A stretch of DNA of 64,000 bases from positions 68,266 through 132,265 of the forward strand of contig CAJARJ010000012.1 in assembly GCA_903944345.1 (NCBI GenBank), written 5' to 3'. Made by a program: the position numbers and the translations under genes. Position 1 is the stretch's first letter. Each line of letters begins with the position of its first letter. The DNA is from Candidatus Omnitrophota bacterium (lineage in GTDB: Bacteria > Omnitrophota > Gorgyraeia > Zapsychrales > Fredricksoniimonadaceae). The notes under the pieces are model-generated. The model was not told the origin of the DNA and ran no database searches. It saw only the letters and a program-made list of their open reading frames with translations. Below are positions 513 through 16,568 of this stretch, piece by piece.

Positions 513-1208
513 TTATTCGCTTGCAAAAGCCCACATTTTTTCAACAGCCGTATCAACTGGTTTAGGCAAATTGCGGTCTTTAATAAAAGCGCCTAATGTC
601 CCTTTAGAACCAGAAACTTCTCTCGCAAGGCATTCAAGTGAAGCCATACTATGTTGAATAGCTCCGGTAACATCAGGTTCCGGTCTTTTTGATAAATCCT
701 CTCCTGCATGTTTTAATTCATTTAAAGCAGTGGGTCGCCCAGAATCATGTAAAAGAGATTTGGCTTCAGTTGTTATTTGCTCATAATCGCCTTCACCTCG
801 CACGGAAAGCACTCCACCTTCCATCTTCCAGCCGATGCCTTTTTTAAGAAAGAAATTATTTAACCCTTTCTCGAAGAACCTATCTGTTGCATCTTTTCGA
901 GCAAAAATTTCACAAATATCATAAACTTCAAACCATTCACAGTTATCAATCAAACCTTCACATTCATTAAGGACATTAGGATCACTCCAATTTTGAGCTT
1001 CATCCGGCAAGGAATCTAGCGCCTCACAAATAATGCTGCGCAAAGCCCTTGCATTAAATCCGCTCTTTAATGCTACGGACAATATTCCTCTTCGCAGAAA
1101 ACCTGGGGCCTCATAACGAACAGTAATGGACACTGTAGGTGCTTGATACCCATGTCTCTCTGAAAATAAAGGTTTTGTATTCATAAGGATTATGTCGCGA
1201 ATAAACAA
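513..1208 (-). CDS. Hypothetical protein (231 aa). Possible abortive-infection/defence-associated protein, but no motif recognised.
   Basis: Long ORF in the AT-rich island. It begins with a TTG start in the ORF track. It lies 6 bp downstream of a small membrane-protein gene on the same strand. Confidence 0.45.
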   Translation of the reverse strand: MFIRDIILMNTKPLFSERHGYQAPTVSITVRYEAPGFLRRGILSVALKSGFNARALRSIICEALDSLPDEAQNWSDPNVLNECEGLIDNCEWFEVYDICEIFARKDATDRFFEKGLNNFFLKKGIGWKMEGGVLSVRGEGDYEQITTEAKSLLHDSGRPTALNELKHAGEDLSKRPEPDVTGAIQHSMASLECLAREVSGSKGTLGAFIKDRNLPKPVDTAVEKMWAFASE

Positions 1209-1214
1209 TTACTT

Positions 1215-1547
1215 TTACCGCTCCTGTCCTTTCAATTTCCCAAGACCTGTATCAATCCAATCTATAATGCGATACGAATATCCGGCAATTCCGATAACTG
1301 TACCAATAGATAAAATTAAATCGACCTTATCCAATGAAGCAACCCGGAAATCTGGATTGCGAATCAAGAGAAGATATAAGCAAACCCACCCGGCTAACGA
1401 ACCTATAAACTCCGACAAAAAGATACCAGACGCCAATATTTTCTCTCCCTTCTTCCAGCTCTTTCCTTCTTCCACACAGCCATGAACACCCCAGAAAACA
1501 CTGGCAACAAGCGATATCCCCAAAAACAACCAAAAAGAAATTTGCAT
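1215..1547 (-). CDS. Small integral membrane protein (110 aa, about 3 predicted TM helices).
   Basis: Hydrophobic segments in the translation. Tightly linked upstream of the 231-aa ORF. Confidence 0.4.
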   Translation of the reverse strand: MQISFWLFLGISLVASVFWGVHGCVEEGKSWKKGEKILASGIFLSEFIGSLAGWVCLYLLLIRNPDFRVASLDKVDLILSIGTVIGIAGYSYRIIDWIDTGLGKLKGQER

Positions 1548-1710
1548 ATTATTCTCTCTTTCAGACTACCATCTTAATCCGTTTAATTGTACCCAATCCA
1601 TCGCTACGCGTTCATATTTCCAAAGATATAGGCCCTAACGCCAAATGAAGGAAAGAAATCATATTTTATCTTTCAAATTACAGTCCGAAACCTACTTTAA
1701 GTCAAATGTG

Positions 1711-2334
1711 TTAGACATTGCCAATATCTAATATCAAACGCGAACCATCCACCTCGGCTCCTATTCCGATTAAACGATCCCACCTCACGATATTGCCCTC
1801 TTTGCATTTATCTCTAAAACATTGAATCTGCTTAGCAAGATTAGAAATAGAATAAACTCGATATGTGATCCAAACCACTTCTCCTTTTGGTACAGATAAC
1901 GATCCAATAATCCGGTCATCCTCAGAACCTGGTTGTATAAAACCTGATTTTGTAATCCAAACATCCATTTCTGTTACCATATCGTCAGGCGCATTGGGTA
2001 TCCAACAAATGCCCTTCTTATGATCAACCTGATTAAGATTAACCTCAGATGATGGTGTAATAATGCGAAATGCTAATATTTCACCAGGTCTCATTTCCTT
2101 TGGGCGTTCCCAGATATCCAGATGCCTTATCTTTGACTTATCAAAAGTGTTTTCTGCGCTATCCCAATACTCTTCTGTAAATCCTATTTGCCAACTACCT
2201 GATTCATGCATACTTGCTTTCAAGGAACCTAAAGAACGACAAGTCAAATAGATATCTGGCGTTGTTTTGGACACAAAACAATTCCAAGTAGCCGCTTCAA
2301 AAGTTCCACTTTTAATGCCAAATCTTAAACACAT
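1711..2334 (-). CDS. Hypothetical protein (207 aa).
   Basis: ORF in the AT-rich island. No recognisable motif. Confidence 0.4.
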   Translation of the reverse strand: MCLRFGIKSGTFEAATWNCFVSKTTPDIYLTCRSLGSLKASMHESGSWQIGFTEEYWDSAENTFDKSKIRHLDIWERPKEMRPGEILAFRIITPSSEVNLNQVDHKKGICWIPNAPDDMVTEMDVWITKSGFIQPGSEDDRIIGSLSVPKGEVVWITYRVYSISNLAKQIQCFRDKCKEGNIVRWDRLIGIGAEVDGSRLILDIGNV

Positions 2335-2543
2335 CTTTTAGAACCCACTCTAAAGAACTTACCAATCGGACAATATTTAACAGATCAAACTTCTCTGCCC
2401 TAGAATTAAACTCAAATGAACCCATGCCAACTCCTCATCATCTAAAAACAAGATAATACTTCTTACCAATTCAATCTAATTTACCAATCTATATTAACCA
2501 AAATAAACACCTTACCAACCAATCCCACCCCTAATAAATAACT

Positions 2544-2656
2544 CCATTTTGCTTGGGGTTGTTCAAGACCCCTCCCCCTATCACAACCTATGGTTGAGGG
2601 GGTGGGGTCTTGAACGAACTGAAGAGCAAAGCGATTCAGAACCCCATGCAAAATGG
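2544..2656. repeat. Nested imperfect inverted repeat / long hairpin. Outer arms 2544..2558 and 2642..2656; inner 19-bp arms 2561..2579 and 2597..2615; side hairpin 2619..2639.
   Basis: Seen in the sequence. GTTCAAGACCCCTCCCCCT pairs with AGGGGGTGGGGTCTTGAAC. CCATTTTGCTTGGGG pairs with CCCCATGCAAAATGG. It lies in a 460-bp intergenic gap. Confidence 0.45.
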
Positions 2657-2793
2657 CAACTTAAGAAATCAAAAGATTACAGGAACATTTCCAATCTGTA
2701 ATTCAGCAGTAATAAATCTGTAATAAGAAACCCTGTAGAAAAAGCGCCAGAAGGCGCCTTCAAAGACATTAAACTAACTTCAACCTAATCTTT

Positions 2794-3522
2794 CTAAACA
2801 GGCTCATCTTTCTTTTGCGCCTTAGCCGCAGCCAACACAAACGCACAGAGGCCAACAAAAATTGCTGCCGCTAAAGCCACCAACAATAACGGACACAAAA
2901 TTCCAGCGATCACATAAAGCAAGAAAAAGAACCCGTCCTTGAGCCAATTAAAACTTTGCTGTTTGACCTTCTTGGCGACAACATCAAACCAGATATCGTT
3001 ATAAAAGTCTATCGGCATGACCTTGTAAGGCGGATTCTCAAAGCAATAAGCATCCGCCTTCTGCAATCCAGTTGCAATTAGCTCAGAACAAAAATAGGAA
3101 TCATTTACATTAAAACAATCACCCAAAAACTTCTTGTCCAACAGGAAATGCAATCCAGCTGGAAGAAAGTTGAACAACGCGAAATAGATCAACGCCCGAA
3201 AATCATACTTCTTTGATTCTTCACCTTTACAAAAAGCTACAACCTTAGCGATAGCCTGTGCATTCGCTTTTATCGGTCGCAGCGCAAGCAGATCTAATTT
3301 CTCCGTCAAATACGCTTCCTTAAAACTCCTTTTGACGATTCCTCCAGGAAATGCCTCAACAACTTGTCCATATCCGATATATAGCGCCGCATGAGTCCAA
3401 CCACGATCCCCATACCCCCTTTTGAAGAAATTGGCCGTTCTGATCGGAAGCGACCCAAGCTCAAATCCCCTGCCGCAGGTCAAAACGACATCGCCCGGTT
3501 GAAGTTTTTCTTCTAAAGACAT
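2794..3522 (-). CDS. YiiX/YaeF (DUF830) family permuted papain-like cysteine peptidase with a C-terminal TM anchor.
   Basis: Motifs GWTHAALYIG and CSELI, with a C-terminal hydrophobic helix. It lies 18 bp downstream of the His-rich ORF on the same strand. Confidence 0.5.
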   Translation of the reverse strand: MSLEEKLQPGDVVLTCGRGFELGSLPIRTANFFKRGYGDRGWTHAALYIGYGQVVEAFPGGIVKRSFKEAYLTEKLDLLALRPIKANAQAIAKVVAFCKGEESKKYDFRALIYFALFNFLPAGLHFLLDKKFLGDCFNVNDSYFCSELIATGLQKADAYCFENPPYKVMPIDFYNDIWFDVVAKKVKQQSFNWLKDGFFFLLYVIAGILCPLLLVALAAAIFVGLCAFVLAAAKAQKKDEPV

Positions 3523-3540
3523 AAATCCCCCCTCATGCCA

Positions 3541-3924
3541 TTAGGCTAAAAATACTGCCTGCTGACGATTTGCTGGCTGCTTAATTACCCAAAGACGATA
3601 CCCTTTTCCATCCGAGTCCGGCTCGCGATCTGGAAGATCTTCATGAGAAATGTATTCCCAATGCACTTCATCAAAGAAATAATGGTGCTCCCTGAAATAA
3701 TGATAAAGCAATACCGCTCGAGCAACATTATACGGTGACAAGAAATGATCAGGATGATGCTGCTTGATGTATTCAAGGTCTAAGCGAAAATGGTATTGAA
3801 AAGAATCTTCCACAATTTTCTGATGACAATTATTATCGCGATAGGAAACGAAACAAATAACATCATCCCAATCGACCCGATCCTGGCTTTGCCTTCCATA
3901 AACCTTCATACAAATCGGAACCAT
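3541..3924 (-). CDS. His-rich hypothetical protein (127 aa). Last gene of the nucleotidyltransferase operon.
   Basis: ORF starts 3 bp after the stop of the upstream nucleotidyltransferase gene. Confidence 0.4.
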   Translation of the reverse strand: MVPICMKVYGRQSQDRVDWDDVICFVSYRDNNCHQKIVEDSFQYHFRLDLEYIKQHHPDHFLSPYNVARAVLLYHYFREHHYFFDEVHWEYISHEDLPDREPDSDGKGYRLWVIKQPANRQQAVFLA

Positions 3925-3927
3925 TTG

Positions 3928-4755
3928 TTACTCCTCACTAAGCTCGCAAGGCAAAGGTAAGAATTCAGCAAACGCAGCCGCCGCTTCAGCCGCAAAGCCC
4001 TTATTCTCTAACGACTGAACACATTGAACAAAATCTTTCAATTTATGAATTAACTCGCGCTTCCTTTCGGCTTCCATGTATCCGATATCAAACCTATCAA
4101 CAAACCGATAGAAGTGAGCACATATTGATTTGGGTGATTCATCAAAAATTGATTCAGCACTCTCAACGATTTCAACCACCTTTTGTTCAATAAAGAACGA
4201 TTCAAAAAGATACCCATTCTTTGCATTCCAATATTTGATTATTCTGACCAGTGGCTTTATGAGCCCAGAAAATTTGGTGTTCACGCTGGAAAGCTTGTCA
4301 TTGAAACCTTTTGGATCTGTATCCATCCAGTCATCCCCACATAACGACTTTACTGGAATCTTCAGCCCGCCCGACCACCGAGATTTTCTTGCCGGAACCA
4401 ACTCAAAGTTAATATGATTCAACGACAATACGATTGCCGGCGCTGACTGCGCGATTTCAGATTTTGCATAGCTTGACTCGACAAAACGACGCAATCTATC
4501 TAAATACGTCTGTGGTCTATTATATGGATCAGCAAAGACTACCATTAAGTCCACATCCGAATTCTGATCGACACTACGAGGTAGAATAGTCCCTCGACTA
4601 TACGATCCAAAAATAAAGCTATCCACAATCTCTTGTCCCAAAGACGTATTTAGCCGCTCTTGTAACGTTGAAATTGATTTCTTAAGGCCGAGCTTCTCGC
4701 CATCGTCAACACCGACAAAATCGACCAATTCTAAAAGGTACCTATTTACCGACAT
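3928..4755 (-). CDS. SMODS/CD-NTase-like nucleotidyltransferase (Pol-beta superfamily), second copy in the operon.
   Basis: Motif GSYSRGTILPRSVDQNSDVDLMVVF (GS...DxD) and a downstream FELVP acidic residue. Start chosen at MSVNRYL with a GGAG ribosome-binding site; it overlaps the upstream gene's stop by 11 bp. Confidence 0.55.
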   Translation of the reverse strand: MSVNRYLLELVDFVGVDDGEKLGLKKSISTLQERLNTSLGQEIVDSFIFGSYSRGTILPRSVDQNSDVDLMVVFADPYNRPQTYLDRLRRFVESSYAKSEIAQSAPAIVLSLNHINFELVPARKSRWSGGLKIPVKSLCGDDWMDTDPKGFNDKLSSVNTKFSGLIKPLVRIIKYWNAKNGYLFESFFIEQKVVEIVESAESIFDESPKSICAHFYRFVDRFDIGYMEAERKRELIHKLKDFVQCVQSLENKGFAAEAAAAFAEFLPLPCELSEE

Positions 4756-5251
4756 GCCCCGCTCCATCCACTCCGTACTGCGATCTGCCGGAATCAATAT
4801 CAGTTTTTGCCAACTCATAATCTTTACGGCCCACCGCCAGTGCGGTCTGATTTAATTCATCTCGCATTCTGGACAATGACAATAACCGTTGCTTTGCGGC
4901 ATTAACATCTGCCTCCACCACTTCTATCTGCCTAAAAATACGTGCCGCATTTCGTAGGGCTAAATATTGTCCGCCATACGTTTTATGCTTTTCCGATCTT
5001 TCCGAAGGGCGTAAAAACGTCAACACTGTCGTTAATGCCGCCGATGCGACAGCACAGGCCACGGCCCAACTGGGAGCCTTCTGAACGACAGAAACACCAG
5101 CCAGTGCGGCAACAACAGAAGCAGGAATTCCAATTAACAAATGATACCCATTCCATCTATCTGCGGCGTTATATTGCCCCTTTGCAGAATGCTCCGAGTC
5201 TTCTTCGATTCTCTTTGCTTCCTTAATCATTTCCTGAATAATTTCAGCCAT
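4742..5251 (-). CDS. SLATT-like 2-TM protein, candidate membrane effector.
   Basis: Two central hydrophobic helices flanked by charged helices. A GGAGG ribosome-binding site sits 5 nt upstream of ATG (MAEIIQEM). Positioned between the two nucleotidyltransferase genes. Confidence 0.45.
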   Translation of the reverse strand: MAEIIQEMIKEAKRIEEDSEHSAKGQYNAADRWNGYHLLIGIPASVVAALAGVSVVQKAPSWAVACAVASAALTTVLTFLRPSERSEKHKTYGGQYLALRNAARIFRQIEVVEADVNAAKQRLLSLSRMRDELNQTALAVGRKDYELAKTDIDSGRSQYGVDGAGHVGK

Positions 5252-5268
5252 ACCGCCTCCAAAATCAA

Positions 5269-6330
5269 TCAAAACGTTTCACCGAAGATTTGCCGCCAAA
5301 GTTCAATCGCCTGATCTTGATTTCCAACCTGCTCAGCCTCAAATGCCAACCGGGCAACGCCAGCCATCTTGTTGACAATAAAACGATGGTGATCGGAAAC
5401 ATCCCCCGGAGAAACCAATGGAGCTTGATTCACAAATGACGACAAACTCCCCGAGCTTATCGCGACATTCACGGCATAGAAAGCAAAAGCAACTGCTTCC
5501 GATACTTTTGCAGCATAGTTTCCAGCGCTATTTGAATCCAGAAACCTCCTCGCTATGGCGAGCTCAACATAGTATGACTGCAACGCTCCGTTCAGCGCCT
5601 CCTTGTTCCAAAACTTGAGTATTTTAATCGCCTTCTTATATGACCGAGCATTATTCTGATGAAGCTTATTAGCAATTTCTTTATCAACTTTCGGATTGGT
5701 TCTAATCCATCCGTCCTGTCCGTCGGGTATTAAATAAAATTTCGCTTCACTTATTGCATCTGGCCGCATAAGAAAACAGGGAACGACATCAAACCCGAGA
5801 CCATCTTCGTCCTCGGTTTCGCCATGGGCCATCGCAATTCTTACGGCCTCCCCGTCAGGACGTACATCTGTTCTCGGATAATGCCTCTGAAGAACAGCAG
5901 ACAACCCACTGATCAGCTTTCTGGAAGATATGTAACTTCCGGACATCCATCGGGCAGTCAGTAAGGGATTGCTCGATAAGACACCATCTGAAACGACTGT
6001 ATAGGGAAGGCGTAATCCATCTTGAAGATAATTGAGACTGTACCCATCTAAAGGAAAATAAATATCAATATCATCAAGCGGCCATATTTTTGTGTGACGT
6101 GCAAACGATCCACCTAAAAAATCCCGATCCTGAACTGACAACACACTCGGAAAAGTTTGATCATTCTGATACTCGGATGATAAAAAATCTCTCAAATGAT
6201 TCTGGCTGTCACTAGCTTTCGACCTAATCCCATCCTCTATATTGATCTGCTTCCTCAACAACTCATCAAATGCACCGTTGACAGCGCTGCTCGCGGATTC
6301 TTTCAAAATAGCATTCAGTAATGCGCTCAT
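5269..6330 (-). CDS. SMODS/CD-NTase-like nucleotidyltransferase (Pol-beta superfamily), first copy, 353 aa.
   Basis: Motif GGSFARHTKIWPLDDIDIYF (GS...DxD) and a third acidic residue in GFDVVP. A GGAGG ribosome-binding site precedes the ATG. Confidence 0.55.
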   Translation of the reverse strand: MSALLNAILKESASSAVNGAFDELLRKQINIEDGIRSKASDSQNHLRDFLSSEYQNDQTFPSVLSVQDRDFLGGSFARHTKIWPLDDIDIYFPLDGYSLNYLQDGLRLPYTVVSDGVLSSNPLLTARWMSGSYISSRKLISGLSAVLQRHYPRTDVRPDGEAVRIAMAHGETEDEDGLGFDVVPCFLMRPDAISEAKFYLIPDGQDGWIRTNPKVDKEIANKLHQNNARSYKKAIKILKFWNKEALNGALQSYYVELAIARRFLDSNSAGNYAAKVSEAVAFAFYAVNVAISSGSLSSFVNQAPLVSPGDVSDHHRFIVNKMAGVARLAFEAEQVGNQDQAIELWRQIFGETF

Positions 6331-6334
6331 CCTT

Positions 6335-6547
6335 CTACCTCCCGTTAATCAAATCATTAAGGGAGGCCACACGCTTATGGTCCAGCAATGTATCCAAATG
6401 CATATCGGCTCGAACGCCAAGATCTACACCATACTTCTTTTCGATAGTGCCAATATGAGTATCGCCTCGCTTCGCGCGAAGCGGTCCTGCTTCAGTTCTC
6501 GATCTGCAACCTCTCATACCTGGAGCATCGTTCTTACATTTACTCAT
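6335..6547 (-). CDS. Small hypothetical protein (70 aa). First gene of the operon.
   Basis: An AGGAGG ribosome-binding site sits 6 nt upstream of ATG (MSKCKND). Its stop is 4 bp before the NTase-1 start. Confidence 0.4.
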   Translation of the reverse strand: MSKCKNDAPGMRGCRSRTEAGPLRAKRGDTHIGTIEKKYGVDLGVRADMHLDTLLDHKRVASLNDLINGR

Positions 6548-6838
6548 GGGAACCTCCTGTGTTTTTATTTGATTAAACTTGACGATTCCCATGTTGACTG
6601 GTCTAATACAGACAAAAAGGGAACAGAAGTCTCGTTTCAAGCGACCTTCCAAATTTCTCTTAAGCCCTCGGTTGCCGCCGAGGGCTTTTTCTTTCTATAA
6701 ATAATGTCTTCTGTATATCATTTCCCACCATTAGTAGTATACATCTCTTAAAGAATACCAATATATTGATTTCCTGTCAAGAATAAAAAACCACTCATAC
6801 GTGTGGCCACAAATCAATATCTTAAAAATTCCATGTTC

Positions 6839-6859
6839 TTTTACGCTTATAGCGTAAAA
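6839..6859. promoter_or_regulatory. Perfect 21-bp palindrome TTTTACGC-TTATA-GCGTAAAA, candidate operator.
   Basis: Seen in the sequence. It lies between the ImmA-like gene and the nucleotidyltransferase operon, inside its promoter region. Confidence 0.4.
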
Positions 6860-6875
6860 CGTAAATAAAAAAATA

Positions 6876-7586
6876 TTACCGCTCTCTAAGATCACGGTAA
6901 CTATCAATACCATTAAGCTGAAGTTCAAAATCATCTTCGGCAAGCGACAACAGCCCCAAGTTCTGTAAACGAATTGTAGCCGCCTGTTTTGAAACGTCGA
7001 ACAACCTCACTAAAGTGTTAACCAAAAACTCGTGATCGTTAGACTTTGATCGAATCTGCTTTACACATTGTTCAAAGATCGACCGTGGCATTAGTAAGGC
7101 TGCCGCTCCCCGATTCGCTTGCCACTCCGTATAATCACCAACCTTGGGCTGATCGTTTCCAACGTCTTCCTTAATTGTATGATTATGACAGAACAGCCTC
7201 CCCGCACCTTGAAAAAGAGGGCCATGAACTAACGCGTGAAACGACTCATGAGCACATGTAAAACGAAAACGCCCGCGCACCTGAACAGCGTTTCTTTCCT
7301 TGTATAAGCCTGCGCTTATCCTAATTAAACATGACTTGTCTTGATTAAAGACAGTCGCGCCTAAGACCCCAGACGGCAAATCAGAATCATCAGGACTGTA
7401 CTCAACGCGCTCCTTAAATAGCCGGTCGATAAAATTTCCGACATCGATGGCAGGACGATTGACATCAATCTTGCCTCCGCAAAAGCGGTAGTACCGCTCC
7501 TCCATGAAGTCATCGATATCAGCTCCCGAACAGATTAACCTCCGTCCGTAAGTAGCCTGATTGTCTGTTATCCAACGCATTGCCAT
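6876..7586 (-). CDS. ImmA/IrrE-family zinc metallopeptidase (CapP-like).
   Basis: HExxH motif (CAHESFHALVH). Immediately downstream of an XRE HTH gene. Confidence 0.6.
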   Translation of the reverse strand: MAMRWITDNQATYGRRLICSGADIDDFMEERYYRFCGGKIDVNRPAIDVGNFIDRLFKERVEYSPDDSDLPSGVLGATVFNQDKSCLIRISAGLYKERNAVQVRGRFRFTCAHESFHALVHGPLFQGAGRLFCHNHTIKEDVGNDQPKVGDYTEWQANRGAAALLMPRSIFEQCVKQIRSKSNDHEFLVNTLVRLFDVSKQAATIRLQNLGLLSLAEDDFELQLNGIDSYRDLRER

Positions 7587-7598
7587 ACTTTGCTCTCA

Positions 7599-7955
7599 TT
7601 ACTTGTCCAATTCCTTCTTTAAACGCTCAAGAACACCCGGGTCAGCTTGAGCCTTCTCTGCTATGCGACGAAACAACACCCCGACCTCTACTTCCTTGTT
7701 CACGGCATCTTCAATAATCGGGTCAACCTTGCCTGCCTTGCCCAACAGCTCTTGCACATCTAGATTCAAAACTTTCGCAAGCTGAACAACAACCTTCCCG
7801 GTTGGAGGATTGCGCCTCCCCTGCTCGATATCATTCAAATATGATACCGAAATGGCGTTTCCATCATCATTAAGTACGGCTTCGCAAACCTTGCGTAAAC
7901 TATATTCCAGCCTGAGCCGCTGTTGCTTTATATTTTGCCCAAATGTAATTACCAT
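7599..7955 (-). CDS. XRE-family helix-turn-helix transcriptional regulator (CapH-like).
   Basis: N-terminal HTH (QQRLRLEYSLRKVCEAV...SYLNDIEQGRR). Paired with the ImmA-like peptidase. Confidence 0.6.
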   Translation of the reverse strand: MVITFGQNIKQQRLRLEYSLRKVCEAVLNDDGNAISVSYLNDIEQGRRNPPTGKVVVQLAKVLNLDVQELLGKAGKVDPIIEDAVNKEVEVGVLFRRIAEKAQADPGVLERLKKELDK

Positions 7956-8068
7956 GTCCTCATAAGCATACAGCGTAACGCTGGAGTGTCAAGAAGAATA
8001 TTGGAGAACCACACTATGACTAATAAATATGGCGGGATTTTAAAACTTACGGATTATCAATATTCTAG

Positions 8069-8098
8069 TTAATTAGTGACACACAGAATTGTTTCTTG
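8069..8098. repeat. 30-bp direct-repeat module, right copy (TTAATTAGTGACACACAGAATTGTTTCTT).
   Basis: 29 of 30 positions identical to 119..148. A TTGACA hexamer sits at 8096..8101. Confidence 0.7.
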
Positions 8099-8172
8099 AC
8101 ATTCTTTACGACAATTAAACTTGTTGCACTCTGGATTTTTTCATTGCAGTAGAATGTAACAGAATGTGATAG

Positions 8173-8190
8173 AACAATTCTGTGTGTCAC
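8173..8190. repeat. Inverted partner 18-mer AACAATTCTGTGTGTCAC, 78 bp from 8077..8094.
   Basis: Identical to 185..202. Confidence 0.7.
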
Positions 8191-8201
8191 CAGTTCCTTA
8201 T

Positions 8202-8222
8202 TGGCTCCCCCGCGAGGGCTCG
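8202..8222 (-). repeat. Duplicated 3' fragment of tRNA-Asn (acceptor/T-stem 18-mer plus an encoded CCA); att-like remnant.
   Basis: CTCCCCCGCGAGGGCTCG at 8205..8222 is identical to 8411..8428, the 3' end of the tRNA-Asn gene. It is preceded by TGG (CCA on the minus strand). Confidence 0.6.
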
Positions 8223-8405
8223 TTGCCTTCCGCTCGCGCTGAAGATCTTGGAAGGGATCCTTTATCAGCGCTCGCTACAGGTCACACCCCCGGCCCGCAC
8301 TCAGACGCTCCTGTTCGTCGCGTCTAGCGGGCCTCCTTTCTCGCCCTCGCTTCCTCCGTTATATCTAATAAAAAAGCCGCCCTGAAAAGGACGGCTTTTT
8401 TATTA
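8223..8405 (+). ncRNA. Candidate small RNA / conserved tRNA-flanking element, copy A.
   Basis: Paralogous to 38530..38735. Conserved hairpin AGACGC-UCCUGUUCGUC-GCGUCU. Ends in an intrinsic terminator. Convergent with the tRNA-Asn gene. Confidence 0.3.
8371..8401. terminator. Bidirectional rho-independent terminator (A-tract, GC hairpin, T-tract).
   Basis: AAAAAAGCCGCCCTGAAAAGGACGGCTTTTTT. It lies between tRNA-Asn (minus strand) and the candidate sRNA (plus strand). Confidence 0.6.
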
Positions 8406-8448
8406 AATAACTCCCCCGCGAGGGCTCGAACCTCGGACACTGTGGTTA

Positions 8449-9002
8449 CGATCTGACTTCAATTACTTGAAGAGTCGGACTTTCTCTTCGCCATACAAAA
8501 CAAAGTATGTTTTGCTTCAGGCGGCGGGTGTAAAGTCTCTGCACTTGCCCGGCCTTTTGACTAAAGGCCTGCTAGCTCAGGATTGACCTGATCTTTATGA
8601 CCAGGCTTTTCCTGACTTAGCCCGCTTGTCACTTCCGCGTTTCCACGGAAGGCTGCTAACTTTGAGAATGAGTTTCCCGGTGACAATTCGCACACAATAT
8701 CATGCACTTATCCAACTCGACTTTAACTCTTTCCCAACTTCGGGTATACCCTTTGCTGGAGATATTAAATTCTTTAACTGTTGGATCAATGTGATGAAAC
8801 TCTAACGCATCGATACAGCGATCATATCCGCAACGCTCACATTTGCCGCCTTTATAGGCAACAGCCATTTCACGCACTTTTTTACGGCGCGCATAAACAG
8901 CTTTAATGAGATATTCACGGCGATCATTGTAAGAACGGTTATCTTTTCTCACGCTGTCTCCTGAAGACTCGACACTCGGTTTGGACCAGCCAAACCTCGT
9001 GA
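8449..9002 (-). mobile_element. Candidate group I self-splicing intron with an HNH homing-endonuclease ORF.
   Basis: Exon 1 ends in U and the intron ends in G. R-like element GCAGAGACUUUA and S-like element AAGAGAAAGUCCGA can form a GACU/AGUC P7 helix. Several hairpins lie in the 3' 250 nt. The ORF has CxxC...HH...CxxCH. Confidence 0.6.
8656..8952 (-). CDS. HNH endonuclease (about 100 aa), encoded inside the intron.
   Basis: CERCGY...EFHHIDP...CANCHRETH. A GTG start has AGGAGA 5 nt upstream. The ORF-track frame is open back into exon 1, up to 9012. Confidence 0.55.
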   Translation of the reverse strand: MRKDNRSYNDRREYLIKAVYARRKKVREMAVAYKGGKCERCGYDRCIDALEFHHIDPTVKEFNISSKGYTRSWERVKVELDKCMILCANCHRETHSQS

Positions 9003-9139
9003 ACAGCCACATGCTCTACCAACTGAGCTACAGGGGAATGAAATTTAAAAGAGCGAATGTTTGCTGCCAAAAAAATATGCGGCAAACGAAAGCGAGATGA
9101 ATTATACAGATATATTTTATCTTGTCAACCACCGAAACG

Positions 9140-9769
9140 CTAAACCTGCACCTGGTCGCGCGCGGGCTCTGTACTCACCGCCCGACGGGACTGCAGCGAC
9201 ATGGTCAGCGTCGACATATCGGCAAACTCCAGCGACCCTCCGGCGGGAATACCCACACCTATGCGCGACACCCTCACCCCGCACGGCTGAAGGAGCTTGA
9301 TAAGGTGCAAAGCCGTAAGCTCGCCTTCCATATCCGCGTCGGTCGCCAGAATAACTTCCTGCACATTCTGCGAGTGGACACGCTGAAGGAGCTTGGCCGT
9401 GTTAAGATCGTCCGGCCCCTGCCCGTCAGAAGGCGAAATAATCCCCAGTAAAACGTAGTACTGCCCCTTGAACGTTCCGGTCTTCTCGATAGCAATCACA
9501 TCCTTGGGGTTCTCGACCACACATATCACCCGCGCGTCCCGGCTGGAATCCATGCACACCGGGCAAATATCGCCTTCCGAAAAATTGTTGCACAGCTTGC
9601 AGAAACGCAGTTTTTCCTTGAGCTCGGCAATGCCGCGCGCCAGGCTCATGGCTTCCTCAGCCGGATTGTTCAGCAGCCACAACACCATGCGCTCGGCACT
9701 GCGGCGCCCCACTCCGGGCAGTTTGACCATGCCTTCAATGAGGTTTTCTATAACACGCGGATAGTTCAT
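9140..9769 (-). CDS. recR: Recombination protein RecR.
   Basis: MNYPRVIENLIEGMVKLPGVGRRSAERM; C4 zinc finger and Toprim domain. 4-bp overlap with dnaX. Confidence 0.85.
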   Translation of the reverse strand: MNYPRVIENLIEGMVKLPGVGRRSAERMVLWLLNNPAEEAMSLARGIAELKEKLRFCKLCNNFSEGDICPVCMDSSRDARVICVVENPKDVIAIEKTGTFKGQYYVLLGIISPSDGQGPDDLNTAKLLQRVHSQNVQEVILATDADMEGELTALHLIKLLQPCGVRVSRIGVGIPAGGSLEFADMSTLTMSLQSRRAVSTEPARDQVQV

Positions 9770-11412
9770 TCGTCATTGATCCATTCGTTGACTATTTCTC
9801 CGTCAAACATCTCCACCGCTTCGTCGGCTACCGGCGTATCCTGCCCCGGCACTTCACTGGCCACCTTGACCGCCAGTTGCACCCGGCCGCCCAGCACTCC
9901 CGAAAAAACATCGGCAATGTAAATAAGGTTTTCGGTGGTGTCCAGATACTCCTTGTTAAAAGCGTCTTCCTGGCTGAAAGCAACCATAATGCGGTTACCG
10001 CTCACCTCAACCGGACGGCCCGGCTGTAAATAGGTGCCCAATGAAATCTTTTTCTGGCTCAAGGCAAAGGTCAGCTCGTTCCATCTTTCCTGCAGATCCG
10101 CCAGAACAAGCGGCTGTCCGCCGGTAAAGGTTTCGTGCGCCGGCTCAGCCAGCGGAGCAATAACCAGAGTGCCTTTGTTATTGTTAAGCATATTGCCTGC
10201 CGGAGGCCTGGGCGCGGCAGAAACAGGAGCCGCAGGCCTTGCCGCCGCAGTTGGCGGGGTCACAGGCCGTTCGGCTGTCCGCACAGGAGCCCTGACAGGA
10301 GCCGGAGCCGTACGCGCCGGAGCTACTGACGCTGCAGACTCGCTCTGGACATCGGCCATAATTTTGGCCGCCGCCAGTTCCAGCGCCAGACGCTGATCTT
10401 CTGTAATACGGGCCACGTCCTGGGAGGCAATAATAATATCCATCGCGCGGATAATCCAGGCCATGGTCTGGCCGGCCGCGACGGCGGTAATTTCTTCTTT
10501 CTGAAGTTTGGGTAAATCCACCAGTCCTTCCAGATCCTTGCCGCCCACCTTGAGCAGCATGACGTGACGGAAATACTGGACAATATCCGAGGAAAAATGC
10601 CGCATGTCCTTGCCGCTTTCGGACACCAGATCCAGCACCTTGAGGCAGCCTGCCATATCCTTGTCCGCCAAAGCGCGCGCAAAAATGGCCAGCTGCTGGG
10701 ATTCAACCAGCCCGAAAAGATCGTTGATCTGCGCCAGGGTAATCTGCGTGCCGCTGGAACTCAGCTGATCCAGAATACTTAAAGCATCCCGCATTCCGCC
10801 TGAAGCAATACGGGCAATGACCGACAAAGCCTCGTCTTCGGCTGTAATGCTTTCTTTGCGGCAGATATCCTTGAGGCAACCGACAATCTTTTCGACCGGA
10901 ATACGCTTGAAATCAAAACGCTGACAGCGCGAAAGAACCGTTGGCGGCAGTTTGGATGGTTCGGTAGTGGCAAAAATGAAAATGACGTGTTCGGGCGGCT
11001 CTTCCAGCGTTTTAAGCAGGGCGTTGAACGCCGCGCCTGAAAGCATGTGCACTTCGTCAATAATATAGACCTTGTACCCGCCCGACATGGGCACCAGGCG
11101 CACATTTTCGCGCAGGACACGCACATCGTCGACACCGTTATTGGAAGCACCGTCAATTTCGATAATATCCAGCGAGGACTGCAAGCCAAGGTCAAGCGAT
11201 GAGGCATCCTTGCCGGCACGGGCATTAAGCTCGCGGGCCAGAATACGGGCACAGGTGGTTTTTCCGGTTCCCCGCGATCCGCAGAAAAGATAGGCATGGC
11301 GCGGGGTTCCCTCGCTCACGGCCTTTTCCAGGATTCGGGTGATATGCTCCTGTCCGATTACATCGGCAAAAGTCTGGGGACGGTACTTACGGGCAAAAAC
11401 AAGGTATGACAT
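9766..11412 (-). CDS. dnaX: DNA polymerase III subunit tau/gamma.
   Basis: Walker A GSRGTGKTT. Pro/Ala-rich linker. C-terminal tau domain. Confidence 0.85.
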   Translation of the reverse strand: MSYLVFARKYRPQTFADVIGQEHITRILEKAVSEGTPRHAYLFCGSRGTGKTTCARILARELNARAGKDASSLDLGLQSSLDIIEIDGASNNGVDDVRVLRENVRLVPMSGGYKVYIIDEVHMLSGAAFNALLKTLEEPPEHVIFIFATTEPSKLPPTVLSRCQRFDFKRIPVEKIVGCLKDICRKESITAEDEALSVIARIASGGMRDALSILDQLSSSGTQITLAQINDLFGLVESQQLAIFARALADKDMAGCLKVLDLVSESGKDMRHFSSDIVQYFRHVMLLKVGGKDLEGLVDLPKLQKEEITAVAAGQTMAWIIRAMDIIIASQDVARITEDQRLALELAAAKIMADVQSESAASVAPARTAPAPVRAPVRTAERPVTPPTAAARPAAPVSAAPRPPAGNMLNNNKGTLVIAPLAEPAHETFTGGQPLVLADLQERWNELTFALSQKKISLGTYLQPGRPVEVSGNRIMVAFSQEDAFNKEYLDTTENLIYIADVFSGVLGGRVQLAVKVASEVPGQDTPVADEAVEMFDGEIVNEWINDE

Positions 11413-13615: not shown

Positions 13616-13891
13616 TTACTTCTTTTCGCCAAGAATGGTCGTGTTGACAAGTTCGTTAAAATGACGCTCGTTGGCCTCGTTAACCGAATTGACCATCTCG
13701 TCATAACGAACCGCCTGGTCTTTAAGATCATCCTCGGCACCGGGAATGGCTACATTGGCATACTCGTTGTTATGCTCACCGACAACCCTTTCCATAGGAG
13801 CCAGAATCCGGTCATACTGCTGTTCGTAAATCTGGGCCAGCGCCGGGACCGAAAGGACCAAAAGCACGAGAATCAAAAGCATATTTTTCAT
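13616..13891 (-). CDS. Small secreted hypothetical protein (91 aa).
   Basis: N-terminal signal-peptide-like segment. Confidence 0.4.
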   Translation of the reverse strand: MKNMLLILVLLVLSVPALAQIYEQQYDRILAPMERVVGEHNNEYANVAIPGAEDDLKDQAVRYDEMVNSVNEANERHFNELVNTTILGEKK

Positions 13892-13928
13892 AAAAGCCGC
13901 CTTTTATTGATAAAGCATTCCTGAGTGT

Positions 13929-16568
13929 TTACACCAGACTGGAAAGTGTGGTTTCCAGCTGGATATTCCGCTCGCGCAATTCCTGCATGCGCTGGCGCTC
14001 TTTGGCAATAACCTCGGCCGGAGCCTTGGCGGTAAAACCCGGATTGGCCAGCCGCCCTTCGATGGACGCGGCGGTTTTTTCCTGCTGAACGATCTGTTCG
14101 CGTACGCGCTTCTTTTCTTTTTCGATATCGATCAGCTCTCCCAGCGGGATAAAGTATTTGATGTCACCGGCCACCCCCACCGCGCAGTTGCGGAAATTGC
14201 CCGCCTGCGGCTGATAGGAAACCTCCGAAAAACGCACCAGTTTGCCGATAACTTCGATATTTTCCCTTAAGAAATCCAGGCGTTCCGGTGAAGCACAGAC
14301 AAACGAGCAAGCCACCAGATCGGCCGGACGGATGTTCCACTGGGAACGGATATTGCGAATGCCGCCGGTAATATCGATCAGCGCGCCAACCGCCGCTTCG
14401 GCTGCCGTATCCTGCAGGAAAGAATCTTCCGCAGGCCATGACTCAAGAGTAAGCACCTTTTCTTCGCCGGTAAAATGCGCGTAAAGTTCTTCGGTGACAA
14501 ACGGAATAAAGGGATGCAGAAGCTTGAGCGTGTTTATAAGAACAAAGAACGCCGTTTTCTGCGTATTGATATCGGAAAAACGTGCCTTGATCATTTCCAG
14601 ATACCAGTCGCAGTAATTCGACCAGAAGAATTCATAAAGAATATTGACCGCTTCGGAATAACGGTACTGCTCGATAGCGCGGGCCGTGTCCTGCACAGCG
14701 CGGGAATACAGCGACAGGATCCAGCGTGAGGGCATGTCGAGCGCGGCGCGGTCGATCTCCTGTGCCGAAGAGGCGCGTCCTTCGGGCGTGACGTTCATAA
14801 GAACAAAGCGTCCGGCATTCCAGAGCTTGTTGCTGAAATTGCGCCCGATCTCGAACTTCTCTTTTGAAATATAAATATCCTGCCCGGAATTAAGGATCAT
14901 GCTAAAACGCAGTGCGTCTGCCCCGAATTCGGCAATGATCTCCAGCGGATCAATGGCATTGCCCAGCGATTTGGACATCTTGCGCCCCTGGGTATCGCGC
15001 ACCGTTCCGTGCAAAACCACATTGCTGAAAGGTGCCTGTCCTCTGAACTCCAGGCCGGCCATGGTCATACGGGCCACCCAGAAAAAGATGATCTCGGGCG
15101 CGGTAAACAGAGTATGCGTCGGATAAAAGTAAGACAAATCCTTGTTCTCGTGCGGCCAGCCCAGCGTGGCAAAAGGCCACAACCAGGAAGAAAACCAGGT
15201 GTCGAGCACGTCAGGGTCCTGCGTCAGCTTTTTAATGGTCCCAAACTGGCGCTGGCACTGCTCCTGGGCCTCCTGCTCGTTGCGGGCTACAAAAGCGTTG
15301 CCCTCCTCGTCGTACCAGACTGGAATGCGGTGCCCCCACCAGATCTGCCGGGAAATACACCAGTCGCGAATATCGACCAGCCAGTTTTCGTAAACCTTTT
15401 CCCAGCGTTTGGGCTGAATAACCGGCTCTCCTCTGCGAAACGCTTCCAGGGCCTTGTCGGCCAGAGGCTTCATTTTGACAAACCACTGACGGGACAAATA
15501 AGGCTCGACAATGGTATCGCAACGGTAACAGCGGCGCACCGCATGCGCGTGCTGTTCAATCTTGACCAGCAATCCGGCTTCGTCCATGGCCTTGACCACG
15601 CGCTTGCGCGCTTCAAAACGGTCCAGCCCGTCGAAAGCTCCGGCATTGGCGTTCATGACCCCGTTGGGGTGCATGATGTTGATAAATTCCAGGTTGTGCC
15701 GCCGGCCCATCGCAAAATCGTTGGGGTCGTGCGCCGGAGTGACCTTGACCGCGCCCGAACCAAAAGACCGATCCACATGGTCGTCGGCAATAACCTTGAT
15801 CTCCCGGTTGACAAGAGGCAGAACAAGGGTTTTGCCGATCAGATCCGTATAACGTTCGTCGGCAGGATTAACCGCAACCGCCGTGTCGCCCAGCATGGTT
15901 TCCGGACGGGTGGTGGCCACCACAATAAACTGCGAAGGGTCATGCTTGAACGGATATTTAAGATGCCATAACTGGCCGCCCGCATCCTTGTGCTCGGCTT
16001 CCTCGTCGGACAGCGCCGTCTGGCAGCGCGGGCACCAGTTGATGATATAGCGTCCCTGGTAAATCAGCCCGCGTTTGTGCAGTTCAATAAAGACTTCACG
16101 GACAGCCTCCGAATACGGCTCGTCCATTGTAAAACGAGTGCGATCCCAGTCACAGGAGCTGCCCAGCTTGTGCAGCTGATTGATAATGGTGTCGCCGTTA
16201 TGACGTTTCCATTCCCAAAGGCGTTCCAGAAATTTTTCGCGCCCCAGCGATTCGCGCGTCTGGCCTTCCTTGGCGATCTGTTTTTCGACCACGTTCTGGG
16301 TGGCAATGCCCGCATGATCTGTGCCGGGCATCCACAAAGTGTCAAACCCCTGCATGCGTTTGTATCGGGTCAGGATATCCTGCAAGGTGTTGTTAAGGGC
16401 ATGCCCCATATGCAGCACTCCGGTGACATTCGGCGGAGGGATGACAATGGTAAAAGCCCCCTTCGGCGAACGACCGGCCACGGCATGAAAAGGTTTCTTT
16501 TCATCCCAGAGTTTGAGTCGCTTTTCTTCAACACTTTTAGGATCGTAACGGCTAGGAATTTCGGACAT
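13929..16568 (-). CDS. valS: Valyl-tRNA synthetase.
   Basis: HMGH and KMSKS motifs. 879 aa. C-terminal coiled coil. Confidence 0.9.
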   Translation of the reverse strand: MSEIPSRYDPKSVEEKRLKLWDEKKPFHAVAGRSPKGAFTIVIPPPNVTGVLHMGHALNNTLQDILTRYKRMQGFDTLWMPGTDHAGIATQNVVEKQIAKEGQTRESLGREKFLERLWEWKRHNGDTIINQLHKLGSSCDWDRTRFTMDEPYSEAVREVFIELHKRGLIYQGRYIINWCPRCQTALSDEEAEHKDAGGQLWHLKYPFKHDPSQFIVVATTRPETMLGDTAVAVNPADERYTDLIGKTLVLPLVNREIKVIADDHVDRSFGSGAVKVTPAHDPNDFAMGRRHNLEFINIMHPNGVMNANAGAFDGLDRFEARKRVVKAMDEAGLLVKIEQHAHAVRRCYRCDTIVEPYLSRQWFVKMKPLADKALEAFRRGEPVIQPKRWEKVYENWLVDIRDWCISRQIWWGHRIPVWYDEEGNAFVARNEQEAQEQCQRQFGTIKKLTQDPDVLDTWFSSWLWPFATLGWPHENKDLSYFYPTHTLFTAPEIIFFWVARMTMAGLEFRGQAPFSNVVLHGTVRDTQGRKMSKSLGNAIDPLEIIAEFGADALRFSMILNSGQDIYISKEKFEIGRNFSNKLWNAGRFVLMNVTPEGRASSAQEIDRAALDMPSRWILSLYSRAVQDTARAIEQYRYSEAVNILYEFFWSNYCDWYLEMIKARFSDINTQKTAFFVLINTLKLLHPFIPFVTEELYAHFTGEEKVLTLESWPAEDSFLQDTAAEAAVGALIDITGGIRNIRSQWNIRPADLVACSFVCASPERLDFLRENIEVIGKLVRFSEVSYQPQAGNFRNCAVGVAGDIKYFIPLGELIDIEKEKKRVREQIVQQEKTAASIEGRLANPGFTAKAPAEVIAKERQRMQELRERNIQLETTLSSLV

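Follow-up and report, generated by a model that had tools for sequence, protein, structure and literature searches.

Two cyclases of different lineages and one SLATT-family membrane protein in a CBASS-type operon of a Candidatus Omnitrophota bacterium

Organization of the locus

The DNA analysed here is a stretch of 64,000 nt (the window) from contig CAJARJ010000012.1 of the Candidatus Omnitrophota assembly GCA_903944345.1, and its subject is a set of eight co-directional genes on the minus strand, from 7955 to 2794, that resembles a CBASS operon (antiphage signalling by means of cyclic oligonucleotides) with two cyclases. The first two genes code for a CapH-like repressor of 118 aa with an XRE-type helix-turn-helix (HTH; 7599..7955) and for a CapP-like zinc metallopeptidase of 236 aa of the IrrE/M78 type (6876..7586). 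The other six form a compact block (6547 to 2794) that begins with s70, the gene of a basic protein of 70 aa (6335..6547), and continues with the CD-NTase NT1 of 353 aa (5269..6330), a SLATT-family effector of 169 aa with two transmembrane (TM) segments, here called the 2TM protein (4742..5251), the CD-NTase NT2 of 275 aa (3928..4755), a His-rich protein of 127 aa (h127, 3541..3924) and, as the last gene, a predicted YiiX/YaeF-like hydrolase of 242 aa (2794..3522). An identical locus was found on public metagenome contigs of several samples, where independent gene calls gave 118, 236, 70, 353, 169, 275, 127 and 242 aa. The strand and gene sizes given in an initial annotation of the window are borne out by these calls; s70 and h127 are known as genes from gene calls. 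The starts of s70 (6547), the 2TM gene (5251) and NT2 (4755) were set by profile matches together with the public gene calls.

The block is tightly packed. A gap of 4 nt separates s70 from NT1 and one of 17 nt separates NT1 from the 2TM gene, which overlaps NT2 by 14 nt; NT2 and h127 are 3 nt apart, and the YiiX-like gene follows h127 after 18 nt. The initial annotation had placed a membrane-anchored YiiX-like gene at this distance of 18 nt, correctly, and had described the remaining genes as coupled by 4-bp gaps or overlaps, of which the tight coupling stands and the exact figure does not. The six genes are regarded as one transcription unit because the gaps measure 3-18 nt with one overlap, a promoter-like site is present only 5' of s70, and a terminator-like hairpin only 3' of the YiiX-like gene. 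There are 328 nt between the genes capP and s70, and within them lies the sigma-70-like promoter, recognised by consensus match only: TTGACA-17-TATTCT with an extended TG (6780-6752, minus strand; 10/12 consensus matches). The hairpin, GAAGGCGCC-TTCT-GGCGCTTTT followed by T-rich sequence (2737..2761, minus strand), was read by eye and was not reported by an automatic scan; it lies 33 nt past the stop codon of the YiiX-like gene. The leader that runs from the promoter-like site to s70 also contains a perfect 10-bp stem-loop (6662-6687). On the plus strand, where there is no gene, this has the form of an intrinsic terminator; a minus-strand transcript would carry it as a structured 5' leader.

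Pfam, PADLOC and NCBIfam scans of ten open reading frames (ORFs) between 513 and 7955 revealed no Cap2/Cap3, HORMA/TRIP13, QueC/TGT/OGG, SAVED or nuclease, in agreement with the initial annotation as far as Cap2/Cap3, nuclease and SAVED are concerned. No HEPN gene was detected in the Pfam scan of the locus, and neither a 4TM effector nor a further cyclase was found anywhere in the 64-kb window.

Cyclases, effector and regulators

Both nucleotidyltransferases are SMODS/CD-NTase enzymes, as the initial annotation had proposed. NT2 was matched by the PADLOC cyclase model PDLC00769 (1.5e-85) and by Pfam SMODS (8.3e-32), and NT1 by the PADLOC cyclase model PDLC00802 (5.3e-49) and by Pfam SMODS (6.1e-10); the SMODS matches of both proteins pass the Pfam cut-off, and both proteins are below the NCBIfam equivalog cut-offs. 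The active-site motifs that had been read from the sequence are real and invariant across each family: G74-S75, D87xD89 and D181 in an alignment of 30 NT1 homologues, and G50-S51, D67xD69 and E118 in one of 28 NT2 homologues. The closest solved structures by sequence, in searches with NT1 and NT2, were CdnD- and CdnC-type CD-NTases, those of NT1 being of the CdnD type. An AF2 model of NT2 (predicted local distance difference test, pLDDT, 84.7) matched structures of CdnD, CdnC, CdnB, CdnE and CdnG with TM-scores that reach 0.76, and CD-NTases are in the great majority among its 50 best PDB fold matches. The 169-aa protein was matched by the PADLOC CBASS effector model '2TM' (PDLC00712, 1.2e-61) and by NCBIfam SLATT_4 (2.4e-34, exceeding the cut-off), and hydropathy places hydrophobic segments at residues 35-57 and 61-81, so that its earlier description as SLATT-like with two TM helices is confirmed.

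Several other identities were considered and rejected. Membership of MNT or aminoglycoside nucleotidyltransferase families is ruled out by profile and fold searches (NTP_transf_2 6e-7 vs. SMODS 8e-32), and a degenerate sensor cyclase, which the initial annotation had offered in combination with a single synthase, is not supported in view of the intact, family-invariant active sites of both enzymes. That annotation had itself named placement in MNT or aminoglycoside families, loss of the acidic residues and lack of TM helices as findings that would overturn it; all three were checked and none holds. The locus shares with Hailong (the TM channel HalA with the nucleotidyltransferase HalB, a protein-primed poly-dA synthase) the order of TM protein before nucleotidyltransferase, and with both Hailong and Panoptes (mCpol with S-2TM-beta) a small TM effector adjoining a nucleotide-polymerising enzyme. 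It differs from them in that NT1 and NT2 are CD-NTase/SMODS enzymes by sequence, NT2 also by fold, that similarity to HalA or HalB is undetectable, that an mCpol gene is absent, and that nothing here indicates inhibitory signalling. PDB profile searches of the NT2 and 2TM families, in a PDB copy assumed to include the HalA and HalB entries, gave only CD-NTases or nothing, which speaks against Hailong; Panoptes is disfavoured by the Pol-beta-type SMODS nature of both enzymes and by an effector that matches SLATT and not the beta-barrel 2TM models.

The 2TM gene and NT2 belong together in other genomes. In Methylococcus, Burkholderia and metagenomes, NT2 homologues occur in a two-gene cassette in which a protein of 166-167 aa precedes a cyclase of ~272 aa with an overlap of 1-4 nt. 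The two genes often interrupt a type I restriction-modification (R-M) operon, with hsdS on one side and hsdR on the other. The 166-167-aa proteins are strong homologues of the 2TM protein of the window (E about 1e-55), and its homologues in general (E about 1e-55 to 1e-60) lie directly 5' of NT2 homologues. The order 2TM to NT2 is kept at both of the loci sampled for each of three NT2 homologues (6/6 loci), as it is in most of 80 metagenome loci; among the latter the closer relatives almost all have it, and a distant branch has a 4TM effector instead. By the families of its two genes, the pair is a complete, canonical and widespread type I CBASS cassette. Type I CBASS with a SLATT effector defends E. 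coli, as described for CdnF-SLATT operons (Richmond-Buccola et al., bioRxiv 10.1101/2023.05.21.541620). Such systems, e.g., EcCdnF04-SLATT6 (bioRxiv 10.1101/2023.05.21.541620), resemble the present locus in combining a CD-NTase with a SLATT 2TM protein in the absence of Cap2/Cap3/HORMA, and the 2TM-NT2 pair resembles dozens of two-gene type I cassettes in genomes and metagenomes. The locus differs from them in that an intact CD-NTase of another lineage lies 17 nt 5' of the effector gene and in that three more small or accessory genes are part of the operon. In view of the strong PADLOC CBASS matches, the canonical cassette and the described nature of CapH/CapP, the initial designation as an undescribed CBASS-like system was overstated.

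NT1 is of a lineage that has a different partner. A protein of ~275 aa is encoded directly 3' of the cyclase in 19/19 complete sampled genome loci, and PADLOC models of '4TM' effectors are matched by its representatives. Of the closest relatives from metagenomes, three in number, two have a gene of 274-278 aa directly after the cyclase, and the contig of the third stops within the gene that follows. A type I R-M hsdS is situated just 5' of the cyclase in two of these relatives, and in one hsdR follows the 278-aa gene. NT1 is in this respect comparable to the cyclases of type I CBASS with a 4TM effector, e.g., EcCdnD12-4TM (bioRxiv 10.1101/2023.05.21.541620), with the difference that the 4TM effector is absent here from the operon and from the window. 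Among viral contigs no close NT1-like locus and only two NT2-like loci were found. Since the usual 4TM partner of NT1 is missing and the 2TM-NT2 cassette starts 17 nt past the NT1 stop codon, the operon is regarded as a chimera of two type I CBASS cassettes, and this origin, like the identities of the parts, is well supported.

The NT1-4TM cassette (loci L001, L115 and L116) and the 2TM-NT2 cassette (L025-L030) were observed in the same slot in unrelated genomes, directly 3' of a type I R-M hsdS, and hsdR and a YgjP-like gene come next after either cassette where the contig is long enough. The hsdS-adjacent slot looks like a shared hotspot of insertion or exchange. If the two cyclases do converge on one effector, the locus would show how defence modules are rebuilt by cassette swaps at a common site, the slot between hsdS and hsdR.

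The capH and capP genes 5' of the block, on the same strand (7599-7955 and 6876-7586), were not part of the initial annotation. The CapH-like protein was matched by Pfam HTH_31 (3.4e-8) and HTH_3 (6.4e-8) and by PADLOC HTH_VI (1.1e-5), and the CapP-like protein by Pfam Peptidase_M78 (6.3e-11) and PADLOC capP (7.7e-16), with HESFH as its HExxH motif. A capP-like gene also lies 5' of an NT1 homologue (locus L018). CapH is known to repress the CBASS promoter and to be cut by CapP upon activation by single-stranded DNA, and the pair is reported to accompany type I systems and 2TM effectors and to lie, as a rule, on the strand opposite to the CBASS genes (Lau et al., bioRxiv 10.1101/2022.04.27.489752). 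The present locus is alike in that an HTH protein and an IrrE-like zinc metallopeptidase are encoded immediately 5' of the CBASS genes, the pairing by which a CapH/CapP module is recognised; it departs from the described systems (bioRxiv 10.1101/2022.04.27.489752) in that both genes run in the direction of the CBASS genes and have a promoter-like site to themselves, where the described pairs usually diverge and share the promoter region. That site, TTGACA-16-TATGCT, was located at 7992-7965 by consensus scan. A direct repeat of 32 nt with 75% identity (D1) has copies at 6826-6857 and 7947-7978; the second overlaps the capH promoter and the first contains a perfect palindrome, TTACGC-TTATA-GCGTAA (6841-6857), 5' of the CBASS -35 element. 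Because this position resembles that of the described CapH site, the palindrome is a candidate CapH operator, to be taken as a lead only, as a repeat of two copies could have arisen by chance.

Operons with more than one cyclase and the proposed working of the locus

CBASS is usually described as one cyclase with a private signal to one effector, and type I in the Millman classification consists of a cyclase and an effector only. Both NT1 and NT2 have the CD-NTase/SMODS fold family and the intact GS...[DE]x[DE]...[DE] signature of CBASS cyclases, the SLATT 2TM protein supplies the gene of a cell-killing effector within the operon, and the absence of ancillary genes points to type I. Every core part belongs, as judged from homology, to a known family, i.e., SLATT type I CBASS, the 4TM-associated cyclase lineage and CapH/CapP. 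The minimal two-gene architecture with one cyclase is not found here. The locus departs from the type I definition by its two cyclases, by three extra co-transcribed genes (s70, h127 and the YiiX-like gene) and by its co-directional regulators. In a full-text literature search no description of a two-cyclase CBASS operon was found, although an earlier mention is still possible.

The locus is interpreted, with a probability of about 0.5, as a type I CBASS abortive-infection operon in which two catalytically competent CD-NTases of two lineages are combined with one SLATT 2TM effector, probably under the control of CapH/CapP. By homology, CapH would repress the promoter in the capP-s70 gap until it is cut by CapP. 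By analogy with their families, NT1 and/or NT2 would on infection respond to different phage cues by producing a cyclic oligonucleotide, which would open or oligomerise the SLATT protein in the inner membrane, so that the cell dies or arrests before phage release. NT1 would act as a second sensor input to the SLATT effector, a role assigned to it because no other effector is recognised and because operons of this kind recur.

This recurrence was observed in the sampled relatives: an extra SMODS cyclase on the same strand occurs in 6/80 NT2 loci and 2/19 NT1 loci. The gene order is cyclase-4TM-NT2 in L037 and L078, NT2-4TM-cyclase in L082, NT2-cyclase-4TM in L074/75 and NT1-cyclase-4TM in L012; three cyclases are present in L015 (cyclase-cyclase-NT1-4TM, 5779-9871) and in L063 (cyclase-2TM-2TM-NT2-NT2, 2174-5964). 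L037, L078, L082, L074/75, L012 and L015 combine more than one cyclase with a single effector type. The complete extra cyclases have an intact GS...DxD...D motif, and their lineage varies between operons (models 802, 823 and others). In a neighbour-joining tree of NT2 proteins the multi-cyclase operons are spread among ordinary two-gene cassettes, L037 being sister to a 2TM-NT2 locus, and this scatter indicates an independent origin at least five times; the three-gene operons have merely 27-50% identity and differ in gene order. The earlier view that the arrangement is unusual holds in so far as the second cyclase, NT1, is of a lineage that pairs with 4TM proteins; it is not unique, since it recurs at low frequency.

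That NT1 and NT2 share the SLATT effector is, as judged from this context, about as probable as the interpretation as a whole or slightly less so. Several observations weigh against it. The link between NT1 and the SLATT protein is drawn from genomic context, and a SLATT effector is paired with the NT1 lineage in no sampled relative, so that the NT1 product may not activate the SLATT protein here. More than one cyclase was found in just 1/28 of the NT2 loci for which both flanks extend over 1.9 kb or more. Toxic effectors are easily lost, and the recurrent operons of two cyclases and one effector could be decay products rather than selected designs. As to the proposed control, the match of the CapH-like protein to the PADLOC capH model is weak (0.004), and both regulator genes point the same way as the CBASS genes, where the described systems are usually divergent.

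In the main rival to a shared effector, an NT1-4TM and a 2TM-NT2 cassette would have been joined and the toxic 4TM protein lost, leaving NT1 as an orphan, a silent or decaying passenger beside 2TM-NT2 as the sole working system. The self-sufficiency of the 2TM-NT2 cassette in most relatives, the constant 4TM partner of the NT1 lineage elsewhere and the small share of multi-cyclase operons all speak for it, and the hsdS-hsdR slot common to both cassettes would make juxtaposition by recombination easy. However, NT1 is of full length and has kept every family-invariant residue, including the catalytic ones; the genes are closely packed, with no residual 4TM sequence in the 17-nt gap; the identical locus is present on contigs from several samples; and the same outcome has arisen at least five times independently with the complete extra cyclases intact. 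An orphan NT1 is considered unlikely, though more readily conceivable than the other alternatives given below. If it were one, the locus would document a common route of CBASS decay in which the effector is lost first.

Two further alternatives keep both cyclases at work. In the first, NT1 and NT2 would form a hetero-oligomeric or sequential synthase whose product requires both of them (an AND gate). Their co-translation from a single compact operon is compatible with this, as is the repeated occurrence of NT2-type cyclases beside one of a different lineage. Against it, the great majority of loci have a cyclase of only one of the lineages, with one effector, and the partner lineage is not constant between operons. 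Such a joint synthase is very improbable. In the second, the locus would operate as a guard or decoy, as in Panoptes or Hailong: the constitutive nucleotide of one cyclase would keep the SLATT protein shut, its removal by a phage sponge or nuclease would kill the cell, and the other cyclase would be a classical activator. The likeness of the gene order to that of HalA and HalB, the established inhibitory signalling to TM effectors in Panoptes and Hailong, and the opposing inputs that two cyclases with one effector would permit are in its favour. It is disfavoured by the fold matches of the NT2 model, of which none in the top 50 is labelled Hailong and the great majority are CD-NTases, by the lack of HalA-like or HalB-like chains in the sequence profile searches, by the absence of an mCpol/GGDEF-type cyclase and of an S-2TM-beta effector, and by the usual occurrence of 2TM-NT2 as a stand-alone pair matched by CBASS models; a guard of this kind is hardly to be expected here.

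With two sensors feeding one SLATT effector, the preferred interpretation bears on CBASS in general. Tentatively, and with more doubt than attaches to the shared effector itself, cyclases and membrane effectors may be interchangeable enough for two cyclases of different lineages to act on one effector, so that the operon and its at least five independent relatives would represent 'two sensors, one killer'; more exotically, one cyclase could activate the SLATT pore and the other inhibit it. In both cases there would be cross-talk between CBASS signals, each of which is commonly seen as confined to its own operon. Convergence of two unrelated cyclases on one SLATT or 4TM effector would mean that the nucleotide specificity of the effector is looser, or that the products are more convergent, than has been assumed, and one operon could sense two phage cues and so recognise a wider range of phages.

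Accessory genes and surroundings

The s70 protein belongs to a family whose small, basic members fall into ~186 clusters when grouped at 50% identity; the family has no Pfam or PDB match and is characterised by the motif DAPGMRG.RSRN..G.LR.KR.DTH.GTIE..Y..D.GVRSDMHL. Some members of the family contain two or three tandem copies of the domain. One weak homologue of s70 lies 5' of a frameshifted NT1 homologue (locus L017).

The h127 protein was described in the initial annotation as His-rich and indeed has 10 His in its 127 residues. It has no match in Pfam, PADLOC, NCBIfam or PHROGs, its AF2 model is unusable (pLDDT 44.7), and only three homologues were found among 5.8 billion proteins. One of these (L111) is preceded by two unannotated genes, and a Prok-E2-like gene in the reverse orientation is present where the contig ends; the second (L112) is followed by a 337-aa protein with no Pfam match, and the third (L114) is on a contig with fragments only. 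The invariant residues H34, H45, H56-H57-P58-D59-H60 and H75 possibly form a metal site. A role of h127 as a conserved CBASS accessory was rejected, there being three homologues only, all with no adjacent cyclase.

The YiiX-like protein was matched by the NCBIfam YaeF family (1.9e-10) and PHROG 1128 (4.1e-15) and, under the cut-off, by Pfam Peptidase_C92 (0.001); a PDB sequence search gave no match. It is predicted to be a YiiX/YaeF-like hydrolase of the permuted papain fold. It contains the motifs WTHAA (with the His) and FCSELIA (with the Cys), and hydropathy shows a hydrophobic C-terminus of 43 residues (194-236) as a membrane anchor, in line with the initial description of the protein as membrane-anchored. 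A soluble homologue with the same two motifs is encoded at 15604-16167 of L001, in the defence island of the closest NT1 homologue and ~6.5 kb from the cyclase. The island there (13649-16167) also comprises, as read by eye, a protein with a TIR-like motif and a secreted-nuclease-like ORF.

The s70, h127 and YiiX-like genes are not conserved neighbours of either cyclase lineage. This bears on an alternative in which two systems are stacked: NT2 would use the SLATT protein, and NT1 would signal to h127 and/or to the membrane-anchored YiiX-like protein acting as a lipid hydrolase or acyltransferase. The location of both genes within the CBASS transcription unit, the retained His and Cys motifs and hydrophobic C-terminus of the YiiX-like protein, and the presence of its homologue in the L001 island are consistent with this. 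Yet neither protein has a recognisable nucleotide-sensing domain, neither gene adjoins any of ~100 NT1 and NT2 relatives (the L001 copy being 6.5 kb off), the three h127 homologues are in cyclase-free contexts, and the whole 2TM-NT2 cassette is situated between NT1 and the h127 and YiiX-like genes. Stacked systems are deemed improbable, more so than an orphan NT1, and the SLATT protein is retained as the preferred effector of both cyclases.

The CBASS block lies inside a low-GC island: the GC content is 35-48% from the start of the window to ~9000 and mostly 51-60% beyond. Further candidate defence genes were observed 3' of the operon (513-2334, minus strand), where an AbiJ_NTD4 / PADLOC PDC-S32 protein is encoded at 513-1208 and two unannotated ORFs of 207 and 110 aa are present, the latter with two hydrophobic segments. 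On the other side, at 8411-9037 on the minus strand, a group I intron of ~554 nt, matched by Rfam RF00028 at 8456-8711 (60.9 bits), interrupts a tRNA gene; the intron codes for an HNH endonuclease (ORF 8656-9012; PHROG HNH, 2e-30). The joined exons (~9037-9003 and 8448-8411) give a 75-nt tRNA-Asn(GUU) that is accepted by ARAGORN, whereas the unspliced DNA gives nothing. The 3' end of the tRNA gene (8411-8430, minus strand) is repeated directly, in 18/20 nt, ~190 nt 3' of the tRNA (8205-8224, minus strand); no shuffle had two matches. The repeat looks like an attachment (att) scar that marks the border of the low-GC defence island to which the CBASS operon belongs.

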